Origin: a virus
Strand: one strand, 5' to 3'
DNA: 11,755 bases
Virus genome (UHGV): UHGV-0258651
Part shown: piece after piece, positions 216-11,535 of the stretch
Layout of the letters: each line of letters opens with the position of its first letter
Position numbering within the stretch: position 1 is the first letter of the stretch
Program-made: the position numbers and the translations under genes
Notes under the pieces: generated by a model
The model's database searches: none
What the model was told of the DNA's origin: nothing
The model's input: only the letters and a program-made list of their open reading frames with translations

Positions 216-1454
216 TTGTATAGTACCCTGCTCATTTCGAATGACATGAGTGATTTGGAATTTCAGGGTGCCATTATGAATGTTATTTCATCATTAAAAC
301 AGCTTAACAGACAGCGAAATATTAAAACAAAAAAGATAAAGACGAAGGCCAGACTGGCATTTCTAAAAATGCGATACAGAAGGAAAACATCATTACAGCC
401 GGATAGTTATAAAACAGTGTGCATTTTCATGCACATGCAGGCCATTGGTGACGGCATCGTTACCTCAGGGTTTATTAAACAACTTCAAGAATCCGGCATG
501 GTGGTATATGTGATAGCACCTCCAAGAGTATCATTCCTCTTTACTGATATTGTTGGCGTGGATGCCTTTATTTCTTACGAGAAAAATAAATTTAACGAAC
601 TAAAAGCAAAGATAAAAAAACTGAATGTAGATCTTGTTGTTGACTTCTCAAATTTTGATAACACAGCGATAACCAGATTGCAAACACTACATTTACTTAA
701 ACCTAAACACTCTATCTGTTTTAATCATCCTGCCGTAACTATTTTTGATACAAATATAACCGATAATCGTTCCATTCACTCATCTGAAAGAATGAAAAAA
801 GTTTTATCTTTACTAAAGATAAAAAATAATGATTACGCTGCAGCGCTTAATTTTGACAACAAAATATATGAACCAGCAAATATTGTTGCAAATGAATTCA
901 GGAAGAAAAACAAAAAATTAGTTATATTTAACCCTTATGGCTCTCAGAATAGCAGAACCTTGTCTGATGAACAGATAAACAAAGTACTAGCTTACCTTAA
1001 CAACCTTAAGGGATATCACACAATAGTTTTTAACATGGGAAAACAGATTAATCACAATGGATTGGATAATGTGTCTCTATCTCCATTTTCTGATGCAGGA
1101 TGTTCATTTGCATTGGTTCGCCATGCTGATTTTGTTATAACTGTAGATACTGCTATTGTACATTTAGCCAGTGCATTAAACATTAGACAATACTGTATAT
1201 ATAATAACAGAATGCATGAAGGAAAATTCGAAAATAATATAGTGTGGGGGCCAAACAGCAAATTAGCGACTCAACTCACCACATCCGAACATCTAAGGTC
1301 TGAAGGGGGCGACGATATGCATAAATTCGACATAATGCTTTTAATTAATGCTATCAAACAAGATTTGACAAACGATATACCGAATTACCACTCGGATTTA
1401 GGTTGTAAAAATAGCTCCAGAAACCCAGAATTAGAAAGTAGCAAATCTTTATAA
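216..1454 (+). CDS. glycosyltransferase family 9 (heptosyltransferase-like) protein, AT-rich moron; true start uncertain
   Basis: 412-aa ORF from the track. It has an N-proximal KTVCIFMHMQAIGDGIVTSGFIKQL segment and a C-terminal VITVDTAIVHLASALNIRQYCIY segment, resembling the GT9 (WaaC/WaaF-type) signatures. Strongly AT-rich compared with the neighbouring tail genes. The track start at 216 is a TTG; in-frame ATGs at 246, 276 and 369 are alternative starts, and no convincing SD precedes any of them. Confidence 0.55.
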   Translation: MYSTLLISNDMSDLEFQGAIMNVISSLKQLNRQRNIKTKKIKTKARLAFLKMRYRRKTSLQPDSYKTVCIFMHMQAIGDGIVTSGFIKQLQESGMVVYVIAPPRVSFLFTDIVGVDAFISYEKNKFNELKAKIKKLNVDLVVDFSNFDNTAITRLQTLHLLKPKHSICFNHPAVTIFDTNITDNRSIHSSERMKKVLSLLKIKNNDYAAALNFDNKIYEPANIVANEFRKKNKKLVIFNPYGSQNSRTLSDEQINKVLAYLNNLKGYHTIVFNMGKQINHNGLDNVSLSPFSDAGCSFALVRHADFVITVDTAIVHLASALNIRQYCIYNNRMHEGKFENNIVWGPNSKLATQLTTSEHLRSEGGDDMHKFDIMLLINAIKQDLTNDIPNYHSDLGCKNSSRNPELESSKSL

Positions 1455-1550: not shown

Positions 1551-2045
1551 TCAGAACAGCCCTTTAACTGAACTGGCCGCGCTGTTAAGAGATGATGTCA
1601 CCTTATCTTTGAAGCCGGACAACATATCGCTGAACGATGAGGATTGCAGGCGCTCCCGCAAATCCTCATCACAGCGTTCAAGAGTCAGTGAAAATTCTAT
1701 CTTTTTCGCCTTACCGTAGCGATCAAACTCGGAACGGGTCGTATTCGTTTCAGTCAGCACATACATGCCGTAAATCTGCCCGACACCATCAATCAGAGGC
1801 CAGGGGCGTCCTGTATACGCCTGCGTGGTCAGCAGCGACAGGGACACTTCGCCACCTGTAATTTCAGGATAAAGCACACCAGAAAGAACGATGCGATCAT
1901 CACCTGCACCGATATACTGCCAGCTTGCTGAACGGTTAACGCGTTCATTTTTCACATGCCGCCAGCTTTTGTTTTGCTGTAACTGTTGATGCGGCAATGT
2001 ACGCAGCTCAAAAACAAACATGCCATAGATCATCATCATGGCCAT
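1551..2045 (-). CDS. U: phage tail protein gpU (P2 gpU family)
   Basis: 164-aa ORF; MMMIYGMFVFELRTLPHQ...WRH...YPEITGGEVSL...WPLIDGVGQIYG pattern fits the P2 gpU family, and it sits immediately downstream of the tape measure gene. The GGAG SD is 8 nt upstream of the third ATG (2039), so the true start is probably 2039 or 2036. Confidence 0.8.
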   Translation of the reverse strand: MAMMMIYGMFVFELRTLPHQQLQQNKSWRHVKNERVNRSASWQYIGAGDDRIVLSGVLYPEITGGEVSLSLLTTQAYTGRPWPLIDGVGQIYGMYVLTETNTTRSEFDRYGKAKKIEFSLTLERCDEDLRERLQSSSFSDMLSGFKDKVTSSLNSAASSVKGLF

Positions 2046-2051
2046 GACTCC

Positions 2052-4895
2052 TCAATCTTTATCGTAAAAACTGCCACGTCCGGCACGGGCGCGCCGTTCC
2101 ATCTCTGCCCTGACCATTTCGCCGACCAGTTTCGCCAGTTCGCGGGGATTCTGTGTAACAACGTTATGCAGATGAACATGAATTTCACCACCAAATCCGG
2201 AGGCAACAGACTCCCGGTTACGGGAAGTTACAGGAACTGATGCCACTGGAGATCGTATAGCCTCCGCCACCGGGCGGGAGCTGGCCGCAACAACAGGGAC
2301 CAGCGCCGGAGGCAGCGGAGCCGGGACCACGGGTGTGATATTAATTGCGGGGGCAGGCTTACTGACCTGCGCAATCTTCCGCTCCTGCCACTCCCCACGA
2401 ACAGCAAGTGCTCGGGGCAGGTTTTTAAAGACAATATCGCCGGGGCCAATGCGTTTTTTCGTCTCCTCAACCAGCTTACCTGTGTTATCAGCAATTTTGC
2501 TGAGTCTGCGCAGCGTACCGGTATTGCTGTCTGTGAGCGGTTTATTGTCTTTGGGGTTATCACCTCCGGTGCCATTGCCATTTTCCACAGGCTTCGGCGG
2601 ATTGATTTTCGCCAGGTCCCCCTGAAGCAAGGCAACCTTGTCCTGAAGAATGGCCGCACGCTGTGCGTCTTCGATTTTCTTGCGCGCCCTTTCCGCTTCA
2701 TCCGGAAGCACACCAAGCTTTTCAAGTATCCACGCCAGCGTATCCAGCAACATTTTTGCAGGTGTCAGAACAAGTTGTAACGCACCGCCAAGAACGTTAC
2801 CGAATATCTCGCCAGCACTGGTACATTTATCCAGAGTTTCCTTGCTGGACTCCATCGGTGACAGCAGCGATTTAAACCAGTTAAACACCTGGCTGATCCC
2901 ACTCCCGATTGCGTCAAAAACAGGACCAAACCGTTCAAAGGTTTCGCGCAACGGGGTCAGCCTTTCCATAATCCCGCTGAACACCCCGGCAAAAAATGCC
3001 CTGATGGGATCCCAGTATTTCCAGATAAGAACGGCAGCTCCGGCAAGCGCAGCCACGATAAGACCAACCGGACTGAACAGCGCCCCGATAGCGCCTCCCA
3101 GTAAAGAAACGGAACCCGTCACCATTCCCCATAGTGCTGGCAGAACCCTGACAGCATTCATTGATCCGGTCAGGAGGGAAAAACCAAGACGCAGTTTTGC
3201 CAGCGGGCCAGCAAGCACACCAATAGCCAGCGACAACGAGCCAACCGTTGCAGTCATTGCCAGCAGTGCACCGCCTGCAATCAGTAGCTGGCGCGTCAGT
3301 GCGGGATGGGCCTGCGCCAGCGCCGTCACCTTTGATACCACACGCGTGAGCCACTGCGTGACAGAACGCAGCGGACCGTCAATCAGATCTGCAATGCGGA
3401 TGCGCAACCCTTCCCATGCACTGCCGAGTGATTTCAGATCGCCGTCAAGGTTGTTGGCCATAACCTTTGCTGTGCGTTCAGCCTCACCGCGTGCGCCTTC
3501 AAGTTCTTTTCTCAGTTTAGGTAAGGAACCGTCACCCGCTGCATCAACGAGCGCCATAAACGATGTGAAAGCCTCTTCTCCGGCAATGTCCTTAAAGAAC
3601 GATACCCGGTCAACTTCCCCGTATTTGCGGGTGGCTTTATAAAGGTCGGCCAGCACATTCTCCATCGGGCGCATTTTGCCGTTCGCGTCAGAGACTGCCA
3701 CACCAAGCTCTTTCAGCGCCTCTGCTGCCGCCTTTGGCGGTGATGCCAGACGAGCCAGGCTGGCACGCATTGCCGTCCCGGCATCACTTCCCCTGATACC
3801 CATATTCGCCAGCACGCCCGCCATCGCTGCGGCCTGCTCCAGCGATATTCCCAGCTTGCCCGCCACCGGACCTGCATATTTCATGGTTTCGCCCAGTGCG
3901 CGAAGGTCAGTGTTGGTACGGGTAAACGCTGCGGTGAGCGTGTCACCGACCCGGTCCATCTGGTCGGCAGAAAGGCCGAACTGCGTCAGGATGTTTGAGC
4001 CAATATCCGCCGTCTCGCCGAGATCCATACCGCCAGCCGTTGCCATGCTCAGCACACCGGGAAGCGCAGCCTGAATGGCCTGTGGTGTGAAGCCAGCCAT
4101 TGCAAGAAATGCCTGCCCACTGGCGGCATCGCCTGCGGCGAACTGCGTTTCAGAGCCAAGTTTTAACGCCTGCTCACGCAGCGCCTTAAACTGCGGGCTG
4201 TTTTTGTCGATTCGCGTCAGTGCCTGAACGCGGGACATCTCTTTCCCGAACCCGATCGCAGGCTGCAAAAAACGCCCGGCAGCATAGCCGCCAGCCGCTG
4301 CCGCACCAATTGCCAGCGCACCACCTGTTTTCAGTTTTCCTGCTGTTTCCTGCGCGCGCGAATACCGCTCACGCGCCCGCGTTACACGCGCAAGCGCCTG
4401 CCGTTCGCGTTCAAGCTGGTTGTTGTACTGTTCGGTGCGTCTGATGGCCTGCTGGATGGTGTTATCGCTGCCTGTCAGGGAAATGCCGTGGCGTTTCAGC
4501 TCTCCGCCAAGTTCCCGCATTTTCTGAATTTCCCGTGTGCGCGATTCATTCAGGCGTTCAAGCCGGGTGCTTAACTGCTGCATCAGCTTTTGTTGTTTTT
4601 CGCTGAGCACTGTACCCGTGCGTTGTAACTGATTAAGGGCGTTAAGCTGGCGTCGTGCTTTCACGATGCCCGCATCCGCTTTACTGACAGCGTCACGGGC
4701 GCGCTCAAATGAACGCGCCTGACGCTCGAGATTTTTGATCGCCCCCTGCGTTCGCTGGATGGAGTCACCAAACTGCCCCATCAGGCGGCGGGCGTTTTCG
4801 GCAGGCCGGGTCAGCCTGTCAACGGCGCTGAAAGCGACCCGGATATCAAGAGTCTTCATTGTCTGCATTCCCGCTGCGAAGTGCCGCCCGCTCAC
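2052..4895 (-). CDS. T: tail tape measure protein (P2 gpT-like)
   Basis: 947-aa ORF, coiled-coil/Ala-Gly-rich with central hydrophobic segments (GGALAIGAAAAGGYAAG...), located between E/E' and U as in P2. The track start at 4895 is GTG; in-frame ATGs at 4868 and 4859 are more likely starts. The E' extension overlaps this start. Confidence 0.85.
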   Translation of the reverse strand: MSGRHFAAGMQTMKTLDIRVAFSAVDRLTRPAENARRLMGQFGDSIQRTQGAIKNLERQARSFERARDAVSKADAGIVKARRQLNALNQLQRTGTVLSEKQQKLMQQLSTRLERLNESRTREIQKMRELGGELKRHGISLTGSDNTIQQAIRRTEQYNNQLERERQALARVTRARERYSRAQETAGKLKTGGALAIGAAAAGGYAAGRFLQPAIGFGKEMSRVQALTRIDKNSPQFKALREQALKLGSETQFAAGDAASGQAFLAMAGFTPQAIQAALPGVLSMATAGGMDLGETADIGSNILTQFGLSADQMDRVGDTLTAAFTRTNTDLRALGETMKYAGPVAGKLGISLEQAAAMAGVLANMGIRGSDAGTAMRASLARLASPPKAAAEALKELGVAVSDANGKMRPMENVLADLYKATRKYGEVDRVSFFKDIAGEEAFTSFMALVDAAGDGSLPKLRKELEGARGEAERTAKVMANNLDGDLKSLGSAWEGLRIRIADLIDGPLRSVTQWLTRVVSKVTALAQAHPALTRQLLIAGGALLAMTATVGSLSLAIGVLAGPLAKLRLGFSLLTGSMNAVRVLPALWGMVTGSVSLLGGAIGALFSPVGLIVAALAGAAVLIWKYWDPIRAFFAGVFSGIMERLTPLRETFERFGPVFDAIGSGISQVFNWFKSLLSPMESSKETLDKCTSAGEIFGNVLGGALQLVLTPAKMLLDTLAWILEKLGVLPDEAERARKKIEDAQRAAILQDKVALLQGDLAKINPPKPVENGNGTGGDNPKDNKPLTDSNTGTLRRLSKIADNTGKLVEETKKRIGPGDIVFKNLPRALAVRGEWQERKIAQVSKPAPAINITPVVPAPLPPALVPVVAASSRPVAEAIRSPVASVPVTSRNRESVASGFGGEIHVHLHNVVTQNPRELAKLVGEMVRAEMERRARAGRGSFYDKD

Positions 4896-5375
4896 GCCAG
4901 CTAACCACTTCGCCGGGCGTCATCATGAAGATTTCGGCGGGCGACCAGTTAAAAATGGCGGCAATATCCGCCACAAAGTCTTCTATGTGCTCAAAGCACA
5001 CAACCGTGATCAGGCTTCCGTCGCCTGTTCGTTCTTCCCGCCAGAGTCCGCACCGCTCAAAAAATTTACGGCAACCACACATAACTGAATAAAGTCACGG
5101 GATGCCATTTTTTTGATCGTCACTTCATCCAGTCGCGGTGATGTCACGCGTGACAGCAGCGTAAACATGGATTCCGCTTTCAAATTCAGCACATCAGACA
5201 GCGACAAATCTCGCAGAGATCCAGCCTGCTCAATAGCTCCGGTGATCTCCACATACGTGATTTTTTCGCCGCCTCGCTCAATTGGTTGGGTAAGTTTTAC
5301 GCCACGCTCACTGGTTTCTTTCACAGTGTCAGTAACTACCGTGTTTTCGGTATCGATGTTTTTCGTCTCTTTCAT
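4846..5375 (-). CDS. tail assembly chaperone E+E' (programmed -1 frameshift fusion product)
   Basis: E frame (5375..5010) and the overlapping -1 frame ORF (5082..4846) are joined at slippery heptamer T_TTT_TTG (minus strand, 5064..5058), which is in the correct phase of the E frame. After the shift the reading continues ERCGLWREERTGDG... to a stop at 4846. Same arrangement as P2 E/E' and lambda G/GT. Confidence 0.75.
5010..5375 (-). CDS. E: tail assembly chaperone gpE (unshifted product)
   Basis: 121-aa ORF directly downstream of FII on the minus strand, with AAGGAG SD 7 nt upstream of ATG at 5375. Contains the slippery site near its 3' end. Confidence 0.8.
   Translation of the reverse strand: MKETKNIDTENTVVTDTVKETSERGVKLTQPIERGGEKITYVEITGAIEQAGSLRDLSLSDVLNLKAESMFTLLSRVTSPRLDEVTIKKMASRDFIQLCVVAVNFLSGADSGGKNEQATEA
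5058..5064 (-). other. -1 ribosomal frameshift slippery heptamer TTTTTTG
   Basis: Plus strand 5058-5064 is caaaaaa, which is T TTT TTG on the minus strand. Zero-frame codons TTT and TTG were verified by stepping codons back from the E stop codon at 5012..5010. Confidence 0.75.
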
Positions 5376-5429
5376 CAGGAAACTCCTTTCAGTCAGAGGC
5401 GACGCACTGCGCCGCCTGCATATTACTTA

Positions 5430-5942
5430 TCAGCCAAGCCCGAGCGCGGAACGGATGCGATCGGGCACAATGTCCTTGCCGTCCTTCCGGTAAATGAAGT
5501 TCAGCAGGTCAATCTCCCACAACGGGCGATCGTTAACACTCAGCTTGTAGTAGGTGTTTTTAATGGCGTAAGTGTGTGATGTGGCTTCGCCCTGTTTGGC
5601 TTCCCCCATATCAATTTCCGTCACACGTCCGCGCATTTCGACTTCATACAGGTCGCTTTCTGCATCGGTGTAGTATTCACCCGCAAAACGCAGCAGCGTG
5701 CCGTCAATCGTGCCGCCATACTTAAGGAACAGCTCACGAACTGCGCCCCCCATGACAAAGCTCGCATCAAGCGCGGAGTCGTCCAGACCGAGATCAATAC
5801 TTACCGCTCCCATCATGCCACCACCCCGGTAGCTGTCGGTTTTGCGCGTCAGCTTAGGCAGAGTGACGGACGTCACCTTACCCACTTCGTTTTCACCATC
5901 CACAAACAGCGTAAAAAAGCGAAGATGTTTTGGTACAGCCAT
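5430..5942 (-). CDS. FII: tail tube protein (P2 gpFII-like)
   Basis: 170-aa ORF (P2 FII is about 172 aa) immediately downstream of the sheath gene. Its start ATG overlaps the FI stop (TGATG at 5944..5940), indicating translational coupling; GGGAGG SD upstream. Confidence 0.9.
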   Translation of the reverse strand: MAVPKHLRFFTLFVDGENEVGKVTSVTLPKLTRKTDSYRGGGMMGAVSIDLGLDDSALDASFVMGGAVRELFLKYGGTIDGTLLRFAGEYYTDAESDLYEVEMRGRVTEIDMGEAKQGEATSHTYAIKNTYYKLSVNDRPLWEIDLLNFIYRKDGKDIVPDRIRSALGLG

Positions 5943-7126
5943 CAGGCACCTCCCAGCACCGCAAATGCGGGACCAAAGAATTCATCAGTAAACGACTGGT
6001 AAAGCTCCATGTCTTCCAGCGGGGGAACAGGCGTATATTTGTAGCGAATACGCACGCGCCCCTGACGTAAATTCGTGGTGCCGTTATCCACCACGTCATA
6101 CCAGCACGACGCCCCAATCAGTTTCCCGGCAGTAACCAGTGAATCCAGTTTTGCCCTGATAGCACTGATAACATCCTTCACGTTCGCAGGCGTCAGTGGA
6201 CTGTCGATGGTTTCAAACTGCGCTTCCGCAATTGAATCAGCCAGCACCTGTGCGGTTCGGGTATACACCTCAAAGATGTAGGCGTTCGTTTCCGGTGTGC
6301 GGTTGCCCCAGAAGCGGAACCCGTTGCGACGAATAATGGTCGTGATTTCTTTGTTGTTGAGGCTGTTGGCATCACTGTCTTCGGCCTGCAACGACCAGAA
6401 CACATGCCTGGACATCCCCAGCACATTTTTAACCGGAACGTTGGACAGCGATTTGTGCCAGCCCTGCTCATGGTCAATGTACGCACGAAGGCCGCACGCA
6501 TAGGCAGGCGCGGGGAACGTTTCGTTTTTGCCACTTTTCGGGTTGTAGGCGATGAAGTCCGGCCATAAGAGCATCACCTCACGTTCGTTGAATTTCTGGC
6601 GGTAGGTAATTGCCTCAGCCATCGTGTTACAGTCATGACATGAGGCATACACAAACGCGCGCAGTTTACCCGCAATCACGCACAGGGATTTTGTCACCGC
6701 CTCCGTGTCCAGCTCCGGCGCGGCCAGAATACGCGGACGGTATCCGATGCTTTCATCCTGCTCTGCAACAAGCAGCGCATACATCCCCGTATAGCTGCCG
6801 TCATCCTCAGAACCACCGATAACCAGTTGATCCTGCGTCTTACCGCCTTCTTCTTTGTGTTCAGCCACGCGAACGACGATCACTTTTGTGCTCACCTGGT
6901 CTGCGATAGCCTTAAGCGCACGATAAAGCGTCCCCGTAGTCCCGCATTTTCCCAGCACGTCATTGACGCGGGTCAGCAGTGTGGGCTTGTTCAGCGGGAA
7001 CAGCTCCGCATCCGCATCATCCGCCGTTGCCACGATACCGATAACGCTGGAATCAACATCATTAATCGCTGTTACCAGGTCGGTACTTTCCGTGACACGG
7101 GCACCATGAAAACGAGTTTCACTCAT
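5942..7126 (-). CDS. FI: contractile tail sheath protein (P2 gpFI-like)
   Basis: 394-aa ORF (P2 FI is about 396 aa), sheath-like sequence, AAGGGG SD about 8 nt upstream of ATG at 7126. Followed by tube, chaperone and tape measure genes in canonical order. Confidence 0.9.
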   Translation of the reverse strand: MSETRFHGARVTESTDLVTAINDVDSSVIGIVATADDADAELFPLNKPTLLTRVNDVLGKCGTTGTLYRALKAIADQVSTKVIVVRVAEHKEEGGKTQDQLVIGGSEDDGSYTGMYALLVAEQDESIGYRPRILAAPELDTEAVTKSLCVIAGKLRAFVYASCHDCNTMAEAITYRQKFNEREVMLLWPDFIAYNPKSGKNETFPAPAYACGLRAYIDHEQGWHKSLSNVPVKNVLGMSRHVFWSLQAEDSDANSLNNKEITTIIRRNGFRFWGNRTPETNAYIFEVYTRTAQVLADSIAEAQFETIDSPLTPANVKDVISAIRAKLDSLVTAGKLIGASCWYDVVDNGTTNLRQGRVRIRYKYTPVPPLEDMELYQSFTDEFFGPAFAVLGGA

Positions 7127-7282
7127 AGCTTCAGCCCCTTGTATCCGTTAAATGATTCGGCAACAATCATCACCCACCACGCGCGTAATCTCACCCCTGC
7201 GCCGTTCTCCCGCCACGGCGACAACAAAAAGCAGTAACCCACTCCGCACGCACATGCGACCATGCCGCACAGGGAGGGAAAG

Positions 7283-8392
7283 ATGACCAACACCACCATG
7301 CAATTGCTCAGTCAGGGCACAGACCCCGTGAAAATGCCGGATTTTGATATTCTCGCGGAGGGGGAAACGCTGTCCGGCGTGGCAGAGCGCCTGATGAGTC
7401 TGTCACTGACCGACAACCGGGGATTTGAAGCGGACCAGCTCACCATCACGCTGGATGATGCGGATGGTCAGTTGCAGCTACCGCCACGGGGCGCGCGCCT
7501 GACGGTTCTCATTGGCTGGAAAGGCGAACCGCTGACAGAAAAAGGCACTTACATTGTTGATGAAATCGCTCACGAAGGACCGCCGGACAGGCTGACGGTT
7601 TCAGCCAGAAGCGCAGATTTTCGGGATGAATTTAACGTTAAACGTGAGGTGTCCTGGCATGATGTGACCGTTGAGCGAGTGGTATCCGCCATCGCTCATC
7701 GGTACGGTCTGAAACCGCAAATCAGCGAAATGCTGATGGACATCGAAATCGACCACGCCGACCAGACCGAAGAAAGTGACATGTCCTTCCTTACGCGCAT
7801 GGCGGAAATGCTGGGCGCAATCACCACGGTAAAAAGCGGCAATCTGTTATTCATCATGCCAGGTGGTGGCGTGAACGCACAGGGCCAGCCGTTGCCCTCG
7901 TTCGCCATTACACGCAGCAGCGGCGATCGCCATCAGTTCCGCATTGCTGACCGCGAGGCGTATACGGGGGTACGCGCCTACTGGCTTGATCTTAATTACG
8001 GGAAAAAGAAAAAAGTCAGCGTGAAACGCCGCAAACCGCCAAAACCCAAAAAGGAGAAAAGCAGCAGCCGTGAAGGTGATTATATGGAAGGCGCGGAAGG
8101 CAATGTGTTTGTGTTACGCAAGACTTATCAGAACGAGCAGGCAGCAAGACGCGCAGCGGCGGCAAAGTGGCAGCAGCTACAACGCGGAGCCGCATCATTC
8201 TCCATCACGCTGGCGCGTGGACGTGCAGAACTCTACCCCGAAATGCATGGCACGGTAACAGGATTTAAAAGCGAGATTGATAATCAGGACTGGATCATTG
8301 CAAAAGCCGAGCACACCATTGATAACAGCGGCTTTACCACGCAGCTTGAGCTTGAGGCAAAAATCCCGGAATGGATAGCGGAAACAGAGTGA
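7283..8392 (+). CDS. D: tail protein gpD (P2 late control gene D family)
   Basis: The ORF track starts at 7262, but a strong SD (GGGAGGG, 7272-7278) precedes the in-frame ATG at 7283 (MTNTTMQLL...). Product of about 370 aa with gpD-like sequence (LTITLDDADGQL..., C-terminal ...FTTQLELEAKIPEWI), and ogr follows directly as in P2. Confidence 0.8.
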   Translation: MTNTTMQLLSQGTDPVKMPDFDILAEGETLSGVAERLMSLSLTDNRGFEADQLTITLDDADGQLQLPPRGARLTVLIGWKGEPLTEKGTYIVDEIAHEGPPDRLTVSARSADFRDEFNVKREVSWHDVTVERVVSAIAHRYGLKPQISEMLMDIEIDHADQTEESDMSFLTRMAEMLGAITTVKSGNLLFIMPGGGVNAQGQPLPSFAITRSSGDRHQFRIADREAYTGVRAYWLDLNYGKKKKVSVKRRKPPKPKKEKSSSREGDYMEGAEGNVFVLRKTYQNEQAARRAAAAKWQQLQRGAASFSITLARGRAELYPEMHGTVTGFKSEIDNQDWIIAKAEHTIDNSGFTTQLELEAKIPEWIAETE

Positions 8393-8434
8393 GCAACTTA
8401 GAATAGCGGCAGCACCACGTTAAGGGAGGTCGCT

Positions 8435-8695
8435 ATGTTCCGTTGTCCGCTTTGTGGCGCATCTGCCCGTATCCGCACCAGTCGTCCGGAAAATGATTCA
8501 AACACTGTGCGACAAAAGTATTACCAGTGTAACAATCTGGAATGCGGCGTATGCTTCTCAACACTGGAAGCTTTCCATAAATTCACATCAAAACACGCCT
8601 CCGGCGTTCACTCTTCAGAAGGTATCCCGTGGCATGATCTGCCAGCTTCACACAGGGGAAACAATCAGATGAGTTTGCCTTTATCTCAGAATTAA
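8435..8695 (+). CDS. ogr: Ogr/Delta-family zinc-finger late transcription activator
   Basis: 86-aa ORF starting MFRCPLCGASARIRTSR...YYQCNNLECGVCF, a C-x2-C...C-x4-C zinc finger closely matching P2 Ogr (MFHCPLCQHAAHARTSR...). AAGGGAGG SD upstream; positioned immediately after D. Confidence 0.85.
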   Translation: MFRCPLCGASARIRTSRPENDSNTVRQKYYQCNNLECGVCFSTLEAFHKFTSKHASGVHSSEGIPWHDLPASHRGNNQMSLPLSQN

Positions 8696-8886: not shown

Positions 8887-9027
8887 ATGTCGCAAAAATC
8901 GCTTACAGCCATCACATTCTGCGTGACGGTAATCCTCATCATCTGGATGCTGCACGGTTCGCTGTGCGAAATACGGATGAGCTTCTGGGGAGCGGAGTTT
9001 GCGGCGTTCTTACAGTGTAAGCAGTAA
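8887..9027 (+). CDS. Hok/Gef-family type I toxin (small membrane peptide)
   Basis: 46-aa ORF absent from the ORF track (below its size cutoff): MSQKSLTAITFCVTVILIIWMLHGSLCEIRMSFWGAEFAAFLQCKQ. It has a single hydrophobic helix followed by SLCEIR...AAFL.CK, matching HokA-type toxins (recalled HokA: ...FTWMIRDSLCELHIKQESYELAAFLACKLKE). AGGAG SD 8 nt upstream of the ATG. Confidence 0.7.
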   Translation: MSQKSLTAITFCVTVILIIWMLHGSLCEIRMSFWGAEFAAFLQCKQ

Positions 9028-9053
9028 GGAAACCGCGACGGGGAAGGCAACTT

Positions 9054-9072
9054 CCCCGTCAATCGGTTGCCA
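9054..9072. repeat. direct repeat copy A (CCCCGTCAATCGGTTGCCA), within about 45 bp of imperfect similarity
   Basis: 19-nt perfect match to 11221-11239. Flanking sequence is also similar (GAAGG.AAC.. upstream, CGAGGTCG downstream). Copy A is preceded by a 7-bp stem with GCAA tetraloop (9040-9057). Confidence 0.9.
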
Positions 9073-9116
9073 GGCGAGGTCGAAAAGGCACCCTATTCTC
9101 GCAGTCATGGACAAAC

Positions 9117-9151
9117 AAACCCGCAGCGTAAAAACTGCGGGTTTTCTTTTT
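9117..9151. terminator. rho-independent terminator, likely bidirectional
   Basis: aaa-CCCGCAG-cgtaaaaa-CTGCGGG-ttttcttttt: a 7-bp GC-rich stem with an A-run before and a T-run after, about 90 nt downstream of the hok-like stop. Confidence 0.6.
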
Positions 9152-9175
9152 GTTACCCTCATACGCGAGGGTAAC
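9152..9175. other. perfect 9-bp-stem hairpin (GTTACCCTC-atacgc-GAGGGTAAC)
   Basis: Perfect inverted repeat seen directly, immediately after the terminator. Function unknown. Confidence 0.5.
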
Positions 9176-9389
9176 ACTCAAAGTGAGGCAATATGTAGGC
9201 AACGGTTTTATTTAACACATAAAAATCAATGCATTAAATGGATATTTACTAGCATGGGTACTGGCTTAAAATATCACAACCCTGTTTTATAACGTACTGA
9301 ATTTATTAGGTGTGACGGTTTTCCAATGGGGCTTCCGACATTACGTTCAGCTGATGCTTTTCTTATGTAACGAGAAGACATATATTGGT

Positions 9390-9421
9390 AAGCGATGAAG
9401 CGATGAAGCGATGAAGCGATG
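9390..9421. repeat. tandem octamer repeat, 4 perfect copies of AAGCGATG
   Basis: aagcgatg x4 at 9390-9397, 9398-9405, 9406-9413 and 9414-9421, lying 98-129 nt upstream of the ATPase gene start. Confidence 0.95.
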
Positions 9422-9440
9422 AAACGTCTGTTTGGTTATA

Positions 9441-9485
9441 AACTTCACACTAATAATTTCTAAATGAAATTATTAGTGTGAAGTT
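9441..9485. promoter_or_regulatory. perfect palindrome (20-bp arms, 5-bp spacer), candidate operator or 5'-UTR structure of the ATPase gene
   Basis: AACTTCACACTAATAATTTC-taaat-GAAATTATTAGTGTGAAGTT; the arms are exact reverse complements. It ends 33 nt upstream of ATG 9519. The palindrome is certain; the regulatory role is inferred. Confidence 0.5.
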
Positions 9486-9518
9486 GATGTTTATTGTGAT
9501 TATAACTAAGGAATTAAA

Positions 9519-10988
9519 ATGAAATTATCTCCAGCAGAATTGAAGTTAGAAAGGGGTAAGGTTCAAGATAATAAATTCAATCAATATGTTAAACGTATCA
9601 CATTAAAAAATGTCAGAGGGTTTGATGAGGAAATTGTGGAGTTTAAAACACCAGTTACAGCTCTTATCGGGACTAATGGTGGAGGGAAGTCGACTATATT
9701 AGGTGCTGTAGCTCTCGCTTATAAAAATGTTAAGCCAAGCAAGTTTTTCCCTAAATCATTTTATGGGGATGATTCAATGAGTGATTGGGAAATTGGATTC
9801 GAATTGACTGACAAGCCTATTTCAAAAGATAAAAATATTAACAGGACTGCAAAATTTAAACAGATGAAATGGCGCAGAGATAATTTCCCAGAGCGAAATG
9901 TTGTATATGTAGAAATACAAAGAACTGTTCCTGCAGGCGAACTAACTAAGTTTAATAAATTTTTATCTGGCGATGCTAAACAATTTGAAGAAAAAAATCT
10001 CAACCCTGAGACAATAAAATATTGCTCTGCCGTTTTAGATAAAAAGATAGAAGATTACAGATGTATAATAAATAAGCACGATCCATCTTCAAGAATGTTT
10101 GTAGGTAAGGCAATTAATGGTTCTGGTTATTCTCAGTTCCATTTTGGTGCAGGTGAAGCATCAATAATAGATACTATTGATAGAATAGAGACTGCTGCTG
10201 ATAATTCTCTTGTTTTAATTGAAGAAATTGAAAATGGACTGCATCCTGTTGCAGTGCGGTTGTTTGTTAACTATTTGACAAATGTAGCAAAGAGGAAAAA
10301 GCTGCAAATAATATTTACAACACATTCGCAGGATGCAGTAAACGAGCTAGAGCCAGAAGCTGTTTGGGCTTCTATTAACAAAAAAGTATGGAATGGCAAA
10401 CTAAGTATTGAAAGTTTACGCGCTATAACGGGGCAGAAGATAAATTCGAAAGTTATATATGTTGAAGATTCTTTTGCAAAAGAGTGGGTTGAAAATGCGA
10501 TGGATCGATATATTCCAGAACTAGCCTCAACAATAAAAGTCTACACGGCAGGTGGTTACCCCAGCGTGGTTAAAGTAAGTCAATATCATAATGAGAACCC
10601 TACTATAAATTATCCATCAATCGCATTAGTTGATGGGGATATTAAAGGTAGACCCGGAACTAAAGATCTGCCTGATAATGCAATGTTCATCGGGGATGAT
10701 TATCCTGACGCTACGGTTTTTCATTATATTGCAAATAACATAGAAGAAAATGCCTCAGTTTTGAGGCAAAGATGTTTGTTAACAAGATTTGACGCTGAAA
10801 AGATTAAATCGGAAGTTGAGAGTGTGATGCATTCTGCATGTGATCACCATGTTTATTTTACTAGATTAAGTGATAAATTAGATTTTGCCTCAGAACTATT
10901 CATTCGGGCTGGTATGATAGATTTATTTAATGAGAAAAATCCAGAATTTTGGTCCCCAATTATGGACTTCATTAAAAAAGGTCTATAG
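9519..10988 (+). CDS. ABC-type (SMC/RecF/OLD-like) ATPase fused to a Toprim-like domain; candidate OLD/PARIS-like defence nuclease
   Basis: 489-aa ORF with AAGGA SD 6 nt upstream. Walker A GTNGGGKST (aa 51-59), Walker B/D-loop LVLIEEIENGLHP, H-loop IFTTHS. The C-terminal half has VIYVEDSF and IALVDGDIKG, acidic motifs typical of a Toprim fold. AT-rich, with its own upstream palindrome and downstream terminator. Confidence 0.6.
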   Translation: MKLSPAELKLERGKVQDNKFNQYVKRITLKNVRGFDEEIVEFKTPVTALIGTNGGGKSTILGAVALAYKNVKPSKFFPKSFYGDDSMSDWEIGFELTDKPISKDKNINRTAKFKQMKWRRDNFPERNVVYVEIQRTVPAGELTKFNKFLSGDAKQFEEKNLNPETIKYCSAVLDKKIEDYRCIINKHDPSSRMFVGKAINGSGYSQFHFGAGEASIIDTIDRIETAADNSLVLIEEIENGLHPVAVRLFVNYLTNVAKRKKLQIIFTTHSQDAVNELEPEAVWASINKKVWNGKLSIESLRAITGQKINSKVIYVEDSFAKEWVENAMDRYIPELASTIKVYTAGGYPSVVKVSQYHNENPTINYPSIALVDGDIKGRPGTKDLPDNAMFIGDDYPDATVFHYIANNIEENASVLRQRCLLTRFDAEKIKSEVESVMHSACDHHVYFTRLSDKLDFASELFIRAGMIDLFNEKNPEFWSPIMDFIKKGL

Positions 10989-11053
10989 TAATAATGCAAA
11001 AATATAATATTTAGTTTGCGATTTATATTTTTCATAATGAATTGTTGAGAAAA

Positions 11054-11090
11054 TAAGAGAGCATCGAAAATTGAGGCTCTCTTATTTTTA
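11054..11090 (+). terminator. rho-independent terminator of the ATPase gene
   Basis: TAAGAGAGC-atcgaaaattgag-GCTCTCTTA followed by TTTTTA: a 9-bp stem plus T-run, 66 nt after the stop at 10988. Confidence 0.6.
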
Positions 11091-11148
11091 TGAGATATCT
11101 CTAATGTATTAATCGTTTTATTTTGGCGCTACCACCACTGATGCTAAC

Positions 11149-11535
11149 TTGTCGATCAGACATTCGCACTATTCAATATCTTTTAGGCTCCGCAATGAAA
11201 ACGCCCCCGAAGGAACAATCCCCCGTCAATCGGTTGCCAAAGGCCATTTAGGTAAATCGCCTTCGAGGTCGTTCGATGGCTGCATGACGTTCCCGGTTAT
11301 CCCGTCAAAGAAAATGCACTCGACCGGAAAACCAGAAGAACTAATGGCGGAGTTGCTCAGGACTGCGAATAGTGGCGGAACAGTCCTTGATCCTTTTATG
11401 GGGCCAGGGACAACGGGTGTGGCTGCACTGAAAGCAGGGCGAAAATTTATTGGTATAGAAACCAGTGATCATTATTTTGAGGTAGCAGCGCAGCGGCTTC
11501 GGGGGACTATTACCACAACCATTTCAGCTACATAA
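11149..11535 (+). pseudogene. DNA methyltransferase (beta-class N6A/N4C type) 3' fragment, 5'-truncated
   Basis: The C-terminal roughly 75 aa of the 128-aa ORF read HSTGKPEELMAELLRTANSGGTVLDPFMGPGTTGVAALKAGRKFIGIETSDHYFEVAAQRL, the conserved end (H-x-T-x-KP ... DPF.G.GTT, motif I) of PF01555-type methylases. The catalytic DPPY motif and the preceding roughly 180 aa expected upstream are absent; the upstream sequence is AT-rich and non-coding. Confidence 0.5.
11221..11239. repeat. direct repeat copy B (CCCCGTCAATCGGTTGCCA)
   Basis: 19-nt perfect match to 9054-9072. It sits at the 5' junction of the methyltransferase remnant. Confidence 0.9.

Follow-up and report, generated by a model that had tools for sequence, protein, structure and literature searches.

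A HEC-04 family ATPase-Toprim gene as probable anti-phage cargo at the right end of a P88-like Escherichia coli prophage

A stretch of 11,755 nucleotides from the UHGV virus genome UHGV-0258651 (the window hereafter, meaning the whole stretch that was analysed) contains a plus-strand open reading frame at 9519-10988, which stands in AT-rich DNA downstream of the phage gene ogr and raises the question of what its 489-residue product does there. An initial annotation, made from the letters alone, had read the product as an ATPase joined to a Toprim domain and as a candidate OLD/PARIS-like anti-phage defence gene. This overall reading is supported by a match to the HEC-04 family and by the alignment of residues that are essential in a tested family member. 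We conclude, with a probability of roughly 0.85, that the gene encodes a HEC-04 single-polypeptide anti-phage system, composed of an ABC/SMC-type ATPase and an OLD/AriB-type Toprim nuclease, and that it is cargo at the right end of a P88-like prophage beside raiA.

The initial annotation left the subfamily of the protein unassigned and proposed a profile search, which names it. The HEC-04 profile of PADLOC-DB (PDLC04149) matches residues 2-488 on profile positions 5-488 of 494, with an E-value of 1.8e-203 and 674.6 bits. The second-best PADLOC model is AriA, with a partial match (E 8.8e-26), followed by NsnB, AbiLi, the retron I-B ATPase-Toprim protein, GajA, and Old; the Old profile, with 578 positions, covers two short ATPase stretches only (E 1.3e-14). 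When the C-terminal domain alone is scanned, HEC-04 is found again with an E-value of 1.9e-60, the only other model is the retron I-B ATPase-Toprim protein (E 5.4e-4), and the AriB and AriAB profiles are absent from the results. In Pfam, the matches are restricted to the N-terminal ~290 residues, with AAA_15 (E 4.9e-24), AAA_21, and SMC_N on residues 23-290, and with AAA_23. The PHROGs match is phrog_3940, of unknown function (E 6e-98), and nothing in NCBIfam rises above the curated cut-offs, the top model being PtuA with 50 bits against a cut-off of 500 bits. A search of a large protein collection returned 2185 homologs; among the best 120 of these, almost all are 486-540 residues long, partial sequences aside, and those with a named source belong to alpha-, beta-, and gammaproteobacteria. 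Judged by sequence, the window protein is a core member of HEC-04, showing every defining feature that can be tested at this level. The family itself is already described, named, and included in a standard annotation database and is not new.

HEC-04 ("Hma-embedded candidate 4", where Hma denotes helicase-methylase-ATPase) comes from the work of Payne et al. (bioRxiv 10.1101/2024.01.29.577857), who defined the family and tested one representative. The tested gene, from E. coli MOD1-EC5853 (WP_044502283.1) and with its native promoter region, reduces plating for T4 and T5 and for several BASEL phages, and this defence is lost in the Walker A mutant K62A and in the metal-site mutant E319A/D375A/D377A. 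Its induction with isopropyl β-D-thiogalactopyranoside (IPTG) is toxic, and its predicted Toprim domain superposes on BpOLD (bioRxiv 10.1101/2024.01.29.577857). We compared the window protein with the first 399 residues of WP_044502283.1, taken from Table S2 of Payne et al., and found 42% identity over 378 residues. The residues K57, E316, D372, and D374 of the window protein align exactly with the mutated K62, E319, D375, and D377. Mutants with changes in the Walker A lysine and in the Toprim acids, which the initial annotation had suggested making, are already published for this 42%-identical protein, with loss of defence (bioRxiv 10.1101/2024.01.29.577857). The two systems are alike in their full-length profile match, their length (489 versus about 490 residues), the fusion of an ABC ATPase to a Toprim domain, the stand-alone gene, and the retained essential residues, but they differ in sequence and in setting, the window gene being cargo of a P88-like prophage instead of Hma-embedded. 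Its neighbours are ogr, hok, and a methyltransferase fragment, with no Hma helicase or ATPase, so the embedding by which HEC-04 was discovered is absent here. Its status as a single gene is borne out by neighbours that differ at every locus examined.

The gene, its ribosome-binding site, and the domains and motifs of its product are as follows.

9519..10988, plus strand: HEC-04 family gene for a 489-residue ABC ATPase-Toprim nuclease; ATG start; product identical to WP_032167339.1
9508..9512, plus strand: Shine-Dalgarno sequence AAGGA, 6 nt 5' of the ATG, from reading of the sequence
9582..10394, plus strand: ABC/SMC-type ATPase domain, residues ~22-292, from Pfam, the AlphaFold model, and Foldseek
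9669..9695, plus strand: Walker A motif (P-loop) GTNGGGKST, residues 51-59, with K57; N53-T59 invariant
9915..9941, plus strand: probable Q-loop region IQRTVPAGE (Q134, R135-A139, E141); block I133-E141 invariant or nearly so
10143..10157, plus strand: ABC signature-like motif FGAGE, residues 209-213, ~20 residues before Walker B; Y204-E213 invariant
10209..10247, plus strand: Walker B and D-loop LVLIEEIENGLHP, residues 231-243, with E235 and E236; L231, L233, E235, E236, and E238-P243 invariant
10314..10328, plus strand: H-loop FTTHS, residues 266-270, with H269; T267-S270 invariant
10434..10703, plus strand: Toprim core, residues ~306-395, four strands alternating with helices
10464..10469, plus strand: Toprim glutamate E316 and the adjacent D317 where strand 1 ends, in VIYVEDSF (residues 312-319); invariant
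10632..10640, plus strand: Toprim DxD motif D372-G373-D374, within IALVDGDIKG (residues 368-377); invariant
10704..10985, plus strand: C-terminal helical bundle, residues 396-489, with invariant P396, Q417, R418, D442, H444, S458, and G465

The motifs quoted in the initial annotation, GTNGGGKST with K57, LVLIEEIENGLHP, FTTHS, VIYVEDSF, and IALVDGDIKG, are all in place, and their key positions are invariant. Conservation was read from an alignment of 35 homologs with identities down to 43%, in which K57, E235/E236, H269, E316/D317, and D372-G373-D374 show no variation at all; the motif matches are therefore not due to chance. Further invariant positions are V315-E316-D317-x-F319, A344-G346, H357, and N360. 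The Walker A and the Walker B/H-loop stretches align with those of TsOLD (6p74) at an E-value of 1.3e-10, with the H-loop falling on its THS. The assignment of IQRTVPAGE as the Q-loop is probable and follows from its position within the ABC fold, and FGAGE may be the ABC signature, as suggested by its position and by the LSGGE/Q of Rad50 and SMC proteins.

The whole protein was modelled by AlphaFold2 with a mean predicted local distance difference test score (pLDDT) of 85.1. The top match of this model among solved structures in Foldseek is TsOLD, a class 1 OLD nuclease from Thermus scotoductus (6p74, E-value 8e-12), and the other top matches include GajA of Gabija, the ATPases of retrons Ec83/Ec78 and of Septu (PtuA), the OLD-type effector of retron Eco8, and the heads of Rad50 and SMC proteins. 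Since the ATPase dominates these matches, residues 293-489 were modelled separately, with a pLDDT of 88.8 and a predicted template modelling score (pTM) of 0.85. The separate model displays a four-stranded core of alternating strands and helices, followed by six helices with a pLDDT of about 90. Foldseek ranks the C-terminal regions of the Xanthomonas and Burkholderia class 2 OLD proteins (6njx and 6nk8, probability 0.99-1.0) at the top of the list for this isolated domain, followed by PARIS and GajA. With AriB and the BpOLD C-terminal region, 158-159 of the 197 domain residues align; hence, a part of the helical bundle is common to both. The GajA-DNA complex 8wy5 is among the matches of the whole protein and of the isolated domain. 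The C-terminal Toprim domain claimed by the initial annotation is thus found by the structure model and Foldseek together with the invariant E...DxD motif, although sequence profiles miss it; the assignment rests on the predicted fold and on this motif, and both support it.

The HEC-04 protein probably works like class 1 OLD and like a fused version of PARIS, and is a remote structural relative of both. It shares with class 1 OLD an ABC ATPase at the N-terminus that carries Walker A/B, signature-like, and H-loop motifs, and a C-terminal Toprim fold with a catalytic glutamate and DxD. Its sequence similarity to that class, which includes P2 Old, TsOLD (6P74), and Vc OLD of Vibrio cholerae, is limited to the ATPase motifs, and the OLD-specific sequence profiles do not span both domains. 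It is also shorter, with 489 residues versus the 528 of the deposited TsOLD. P2 old sits at the tin-old position, whereas the window gene occupies another cargo slot, after ogr/hok at the right end. In the case of PARIS, the AriB-like fold of the Toprim effector is shared, but PARIS consists of two proteins, a large AriA scaffold that releases AriB (PMC11464382, PMC12409363), whereas the window system is one polypeptide; neither separate AriA and AriB nor a fused AriAB matching both profiles is present. GajA, class 2 OLD, and the retron type I-B effector (Eco8) have the ATPase-Toprim fold as well. We found no GajB/UvrD-like helicase in the window or at the other E. coli and homolog loci, no reverse transcriptase reading frame or retron non-coding RNA in the window or at the homolog loci, and no Rfam retron RNA in the window. 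IbfA of the IncI1 plasmids R64/pUA1135, a reported PADLOC HEC-04 homolog, exerts an abortive-like interference with a P22-like phage (PMC12111858). Like the window protein, it is a single ATPase-Toprim protein that matches PADLOC HEC-04 and is carried by a mobile element; it differs in its length of 518 residues, its plasmid location in an operon with ydeA/ydfA, and its place on a distant branch. The copy on an IncI plasmid gives an E-value of 9.1e-42 with the HEC-04 profile, and IbfA is thus an outlier of the family, of which the window protein is a core member.

Several observations weigh against our conclusion. Pfam families of the Toprim or OLD type are absent from the C-terminal half at E <= 0.1; the isolated domain matches DUF4435 (the AriB family) alone, at an E-value of 0.12 that is sub-threshold relative to the 27-bit cut-off, and a PDB sequence-profile search with the same domain yielded nothing relevant. 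The Foldseek E-values of the isolated domain are modest (4e-3), with TM scores of 0.40-0.47. At 42% identity to the tested HEC-04, the phage range and the trigger of the window allele may differ. IbfA is 29% identical to the window protein and aligns over residues 29-320 only, so its phenotype is a loose guide. Homologs in Enterobacter, Methylorubrum, and Sulfitobacter stand as single insertions among metabolic genes. Finally, other OLD-type enzymes (Vc OLD, PMC12392090; GajA) nick DNA and Foldseek ranks class 2 OLD over PARIS, which leaves the call on the substrate weak.

The surroundings of the gene show what carries it. The phage genes of the window (gpU, tape measure, E, tube, sheath, D, and ogr) are 97% identical over 7.5 kb to, and collinear with, those of Escherichia phage P88 and its relatives (Peduoviridae, Xuanwuvirus), which places the window in a P2-related, P88-like prophage, of which it forms the right arm. 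The window terminates within the 3' end of raiA, so the end of the prophage lies between 11535 and ~11687. As the initial annotation had noted, the cassette is far more AT-rich than the phage genes: the GC content is 34.9% in the gene and 33.7% in the cassette, compared with 54.5% in the phage genes at 1551-8695. The neighbours that it had named, a hok-like toxin gene and a methyltransferase remnant, with the cassette downstream of ogr, are confirmed. RefSeq records the remnant as a pseudogene without its N-terminus, and the order downstream of the HEC-04 gene is terminator, methyltransferase remnant, and raiA. A helicase or other partner gene is found neither in the window nor beside six distant homologs, in line with the compact single reading frame described initially. 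The elements around the gene are listed below.

9178..11120, no strand assigned: AT-rich cassette between hok and the methyltransferase remnant, GC content taken over 9200-11120
9390..9421, no strand assigned: tandem 8-bp repeat (AAGCGATG) in four copies, ~100 bp upstream of the ATG and directly 5' of the palindrome
9438..9488, no strand assigned: inverted repeat with 23-nt arms (9438-9460 and 9466-9488) and a 5-nt spacer, arms 96% complementary, ATG 30 nt downstream
11050..11093, plus strand: hairpin and T-run, probable intrinsic terminator (hairpin 11050-11088, -20.3 kcal/mol, then TTTTTAT)
8435-8695, plus strand: neighbouring gene ogr (Pfam Ogr_Delta, E 5e-14)
8887..9027, plus strand: neighbouring Hok/Gef toxin gene, not part of the system (Pfam HOK_GEF, E 3.7e-7; WP_000078920.1)
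11149..11535, plus strand: neighbouring remnant of an N6/N4 DNA methyltransferase gene, comprising its 3' third and matching only positions 160-221 of the 221 of the N6_N4_Mtase profile

The cassette had been credited with its own palindromic operator-like element and terminator. The palindrome and the hairpin with a T-run are real, but the role as operator or promoter is not borne out, since promoter-like hexamers occur at chance level (9 sites versus 8.7 expected in shuffled sequence). The 18-nt core of the inverted repeat at 9438-9488 has a single site in the window, with 0.01 matches expected by chance; as RNA, the repeat has a folding energy of -27.2 kcal/mol and scores terminator-like. 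Possible functions are those of an operator, of a hairpin in the 5' untranslated region, or of an insulator that stops read-through transcription coming from hok or the methyltransferase gene. A comparable conserved palindrome was not found upstream of the six distant homologs, the Pantoea locus having only an unrelated 15-nt inverted repeat; the palindrome is thus a feature of the E. coli cassette alone, and comparison offers no clue to its role. Directly upstream of it lies AAGCGATG, whose copy number differs between strains with flanks that are otherwise identical: 4 in the window, 13 in rl0044, 8 in ST69, and 9 in S1-CHI-01-A. An ATG is contained in every unit, with a TGA two units further. 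In the cassette, an Rfam scan detects neither a sok/hok RNA nor a retron or riboswitch.

Compared with the module that precedes it, the gene is rare. The ogr-hok module is found in 1179 of 5426 complete E. coli genomes at a coverage of at least 80%, versus 18 of the 5426 for the HEC-04 gene, and in these 18 the cassette is 97.5-100% identical to chromosomal DNA. In other phages, the slot after hok holds different genes. Strain rl0044 carries the same gene with 100% DNA identity, annotated by PGAP as "ATP-dependent nuclease", and the identity remains 100% from 9390 to the end of the window. In this strain (locus L001, 10299-11718), a TM2-domain gene and a Com-regulated DNA methyltransferase gene, resembling com/mom of Mu, lie between hok and the HEC-04 gene. 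The window is without this block apart from the terminator downstream of the TM2 gene, which it keeps at 9114-9161. In rl0044 the cassette stands between the intact methyltransferase gene, which its left edge follows, and the remnant, which matches the 3' end of that gene with 90% identity; the cassette was thus brought in by recombination inside a methyltransferase gene or beside it. A direct repeat flanks the cassette, with 19 bp at 9054-9072 and 11221-11239, or ~30 bp with gaps at 9043-9072 and 11208-11239. It was considered as the target-site duplication of a mobile unit and rejected, since the right copy is a duplicated, slightly diverged 3' end of hok that is fused straight to the start of the methyltransferase remnant, and no integrase or transposase is nearby. 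The best interpretation of the repeat is a scar left by recombination.

In strains MB06234 (L024, NZ_CM129882.1 1262000-1295200) and EC42405, the HEC-04 gene is found again with the remnant and the raiA junction, and there the trio forms the end of a different P2-family prophage, one that has another tail module and, in place of ogr-hok, a YafO toxin-antitoxin pair upstream. The MB06234-type prophage also carries ParM partition genes. An attR-proximal module thus seems to be common to unrelated prophages that use the raiA site. Beyond E. coli, a 36%-identical homolog lies beside the integrase of the P2-like Burkholderia phage phiE094 (Tigrvirus; NC_055911.1, locus L020 2328-5677). It is annotated as two overlapping coding sequences, which suggests a frameshift or a sequencing error. 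The gene that follows it, of 570 codons and annotated as a cytidine deaminase, is possibly another defence or cargo gene. Among more distant homologs, the one in Pantoea is carried by an integrative conjugative element, the Xanthomonas one adjoins genes for an Mrr-type endonuclease, ParD, and RhuM, and the one in Saliniramus adjoins a Fic gene; no neighbour gene recurs among the loci examined. On a Sulfitobacter metagenome scaffold (locus L007, 7084-9461), thyX (Thy1, flavin-dependent thymidylate synthase) and a homolog with 54% identity overlap by 4 bp at the thyX stop codon; this arrangement is seen on three contigs and suggests that the two genes are co-transcribed. From the pattern of its loci, the HEC-04 gene appears to be a horizontally mobile and self-sufficient single-gene system.

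Some further features of the window were recorded. The sheath-tube-E-T-U tail genes are read from the minus strand and D and ogr from the plus strand; the divergent region at 7127-7261 measures 135 bp. The P2 map differs from this orientation. A rearrangement as the reason why the tail block FI-U and D-ogr point in opposite directions was considered and rejected, since P88 and its Xuanwuvirus relatives are collinear over the 7.5 kb. Between the tail-fibre assembly gene and gpU there is a second AT-rich cargo gene (216-1454, plus strand, 34% GC), which encodes a 412-residue glycosyltransferase of family 9, heptosyltransferase-like (Pfam E 3.6e-6; phrog_36326, of unknown function, E 5.5e-237). 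It is absent from the otherwise collinear rl0044 prophage and present in 49 of the 5426 E. coli genomes at a coverage of at least 80%; it may serve the prophage in lipopolysaccharide modification or superinfection exclusion. The sole Rfam match in the window, IS009 (RF02111) at 1-124 on the plus strand, scores 133.8 bits relative to a gathering score of 117, is cut off at the 5' end of the window, and lies where the tail-fibre assembly gene region of the prophage ends.

Could the gene serve something other than defence? Weak N-terminal matches to the RecF, Rad50, SbcC, and MukB profiles, together with homologs that have metabolic neighbours, one of them overlapping thyX, would fit a housekeeping or phage-replication ATPase of DNA repair or recombination. 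This idea is effectively refuted by the distribution, a gene of AT-rich foreign DNA in a prophage cargo slot and in only 18 of the 5426 E. coli genomes; moreover, those matches are confined to the P-loop region, far below the curated cut-offs, and the protein has neither a coiled coil nor an Mre11/SbcD partner. In this clearly rearranged locus the gene might also be an inactive relic, like the adjoining methyltransferase pseudogene, and the split phiE094 homolog would be a parallel case. We consider this very improbable, as the full-length reading frame aligns end to end with its homologs, keeps all catalytic residues, is 97.5-100% conserved across the 18 genomes, and has a good Shine-Dalgarno sequence and a terminator. 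Hardly more credible is a selfish addiction or toxin module that stabilizes the prophage or the cassette as hok does, with any anti-phage effect incidental. An isolated, horizontally moving single gene that lies beside hok here and beside the YafO toxin-antitoxin pair in other strains, and whose tested homolog is toxic when over-expressed (bioRxiv 10.1101/2024.01.29.577857), is what such a module would look like; but no conserved antitoxin-like partner accompanies the gene at the homolog loci, and the tested homolog protects phage-specifically, by several orders of magnitude, and without induction (bioRxiv 10.1101/2024.01.29.577857).

The remaining alternative keeps the family and changes the target: the protein would be an OLD-like nickase that damages incoming phage DNA directly or stops its replication without killing the host, like Vc OLD or GajA. 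GajA acts on DNA. The fold comparisons lean this way, with the class 2 OLD C-terminal regions (6njx, 6nk8) on top for the isolated domain and TsOLD and GajA on top for the whole protein, and a precedent exists in Vc OLD, a stand-alone class 1 OLD that nicks DNA and keeps the phage genome from being replicated (PMC12392090). On the other hand, P2 Old cleaves the anticodon stem of tRNA-Thr (PMC12445682), and AriB is a tRNA nuclease (PMC11464382, PMC12409363). We tentatively favour tRNA or another RNA as the substrate, with an abortive outcome, over a direct nicking of phage DNA, which is itself a serious contender; a nickase that spares the host, as a complete account of the system, is possible but rather doubtful.

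In the HEC-04 anti-phage system that we prefer, the lysogen would make the protein at a low level and in an inactive state. A cue from the infecting phage would be sensed, perhaps via the variable inserts of the ATPase, and ATP would be bound or hydrolysed, probably with head-to-head dimerization at the Walker A and signature motifs as in Rad50, SMC, and OLD proteins. The engaged ATPase would then license the metal-dependent Toprim site (E316, D372, and D374) to cut nucleic acid, and phage development would be halted, probably at a cost to the infected cell. A more ambitious account would make the window protein the counterpart, in P88-like phages, of P2 Old: an ATP-licensed, tRNA-cutting, abortive "fused PARIS" that excludes competing phages, with its expression tuned by the number of AAGCGATG copies (4-13) and by the upstream palindrome. 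We regard this account as unlikely as a whole; if it were true, the tuning by repeat and palindrome would represent, for OLD-type systems, a yet undescribed form of control that resembles phase variation.

That the gene was picked out from its letters confirms that reading a sequence can by itself single out a real defence gene. The locus provides a natural example of HEC-04 as phage cargo, with the same cassette at the attR-proximal ends of two different P2-family prophages beside raiA, and this phage-borne form parallels P2 Old and PARIS, which are likewise carried by P2-like phages and their satellites. The finding by itself raises no new question, and what interest remains attaches to the carriage of the gene by a phage and to the family's trigger and substrate. 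These last two are the questions of the field, for which HEC-04 offers a compact one-protein model of substrate choice in ATPase-Toprim immunity.

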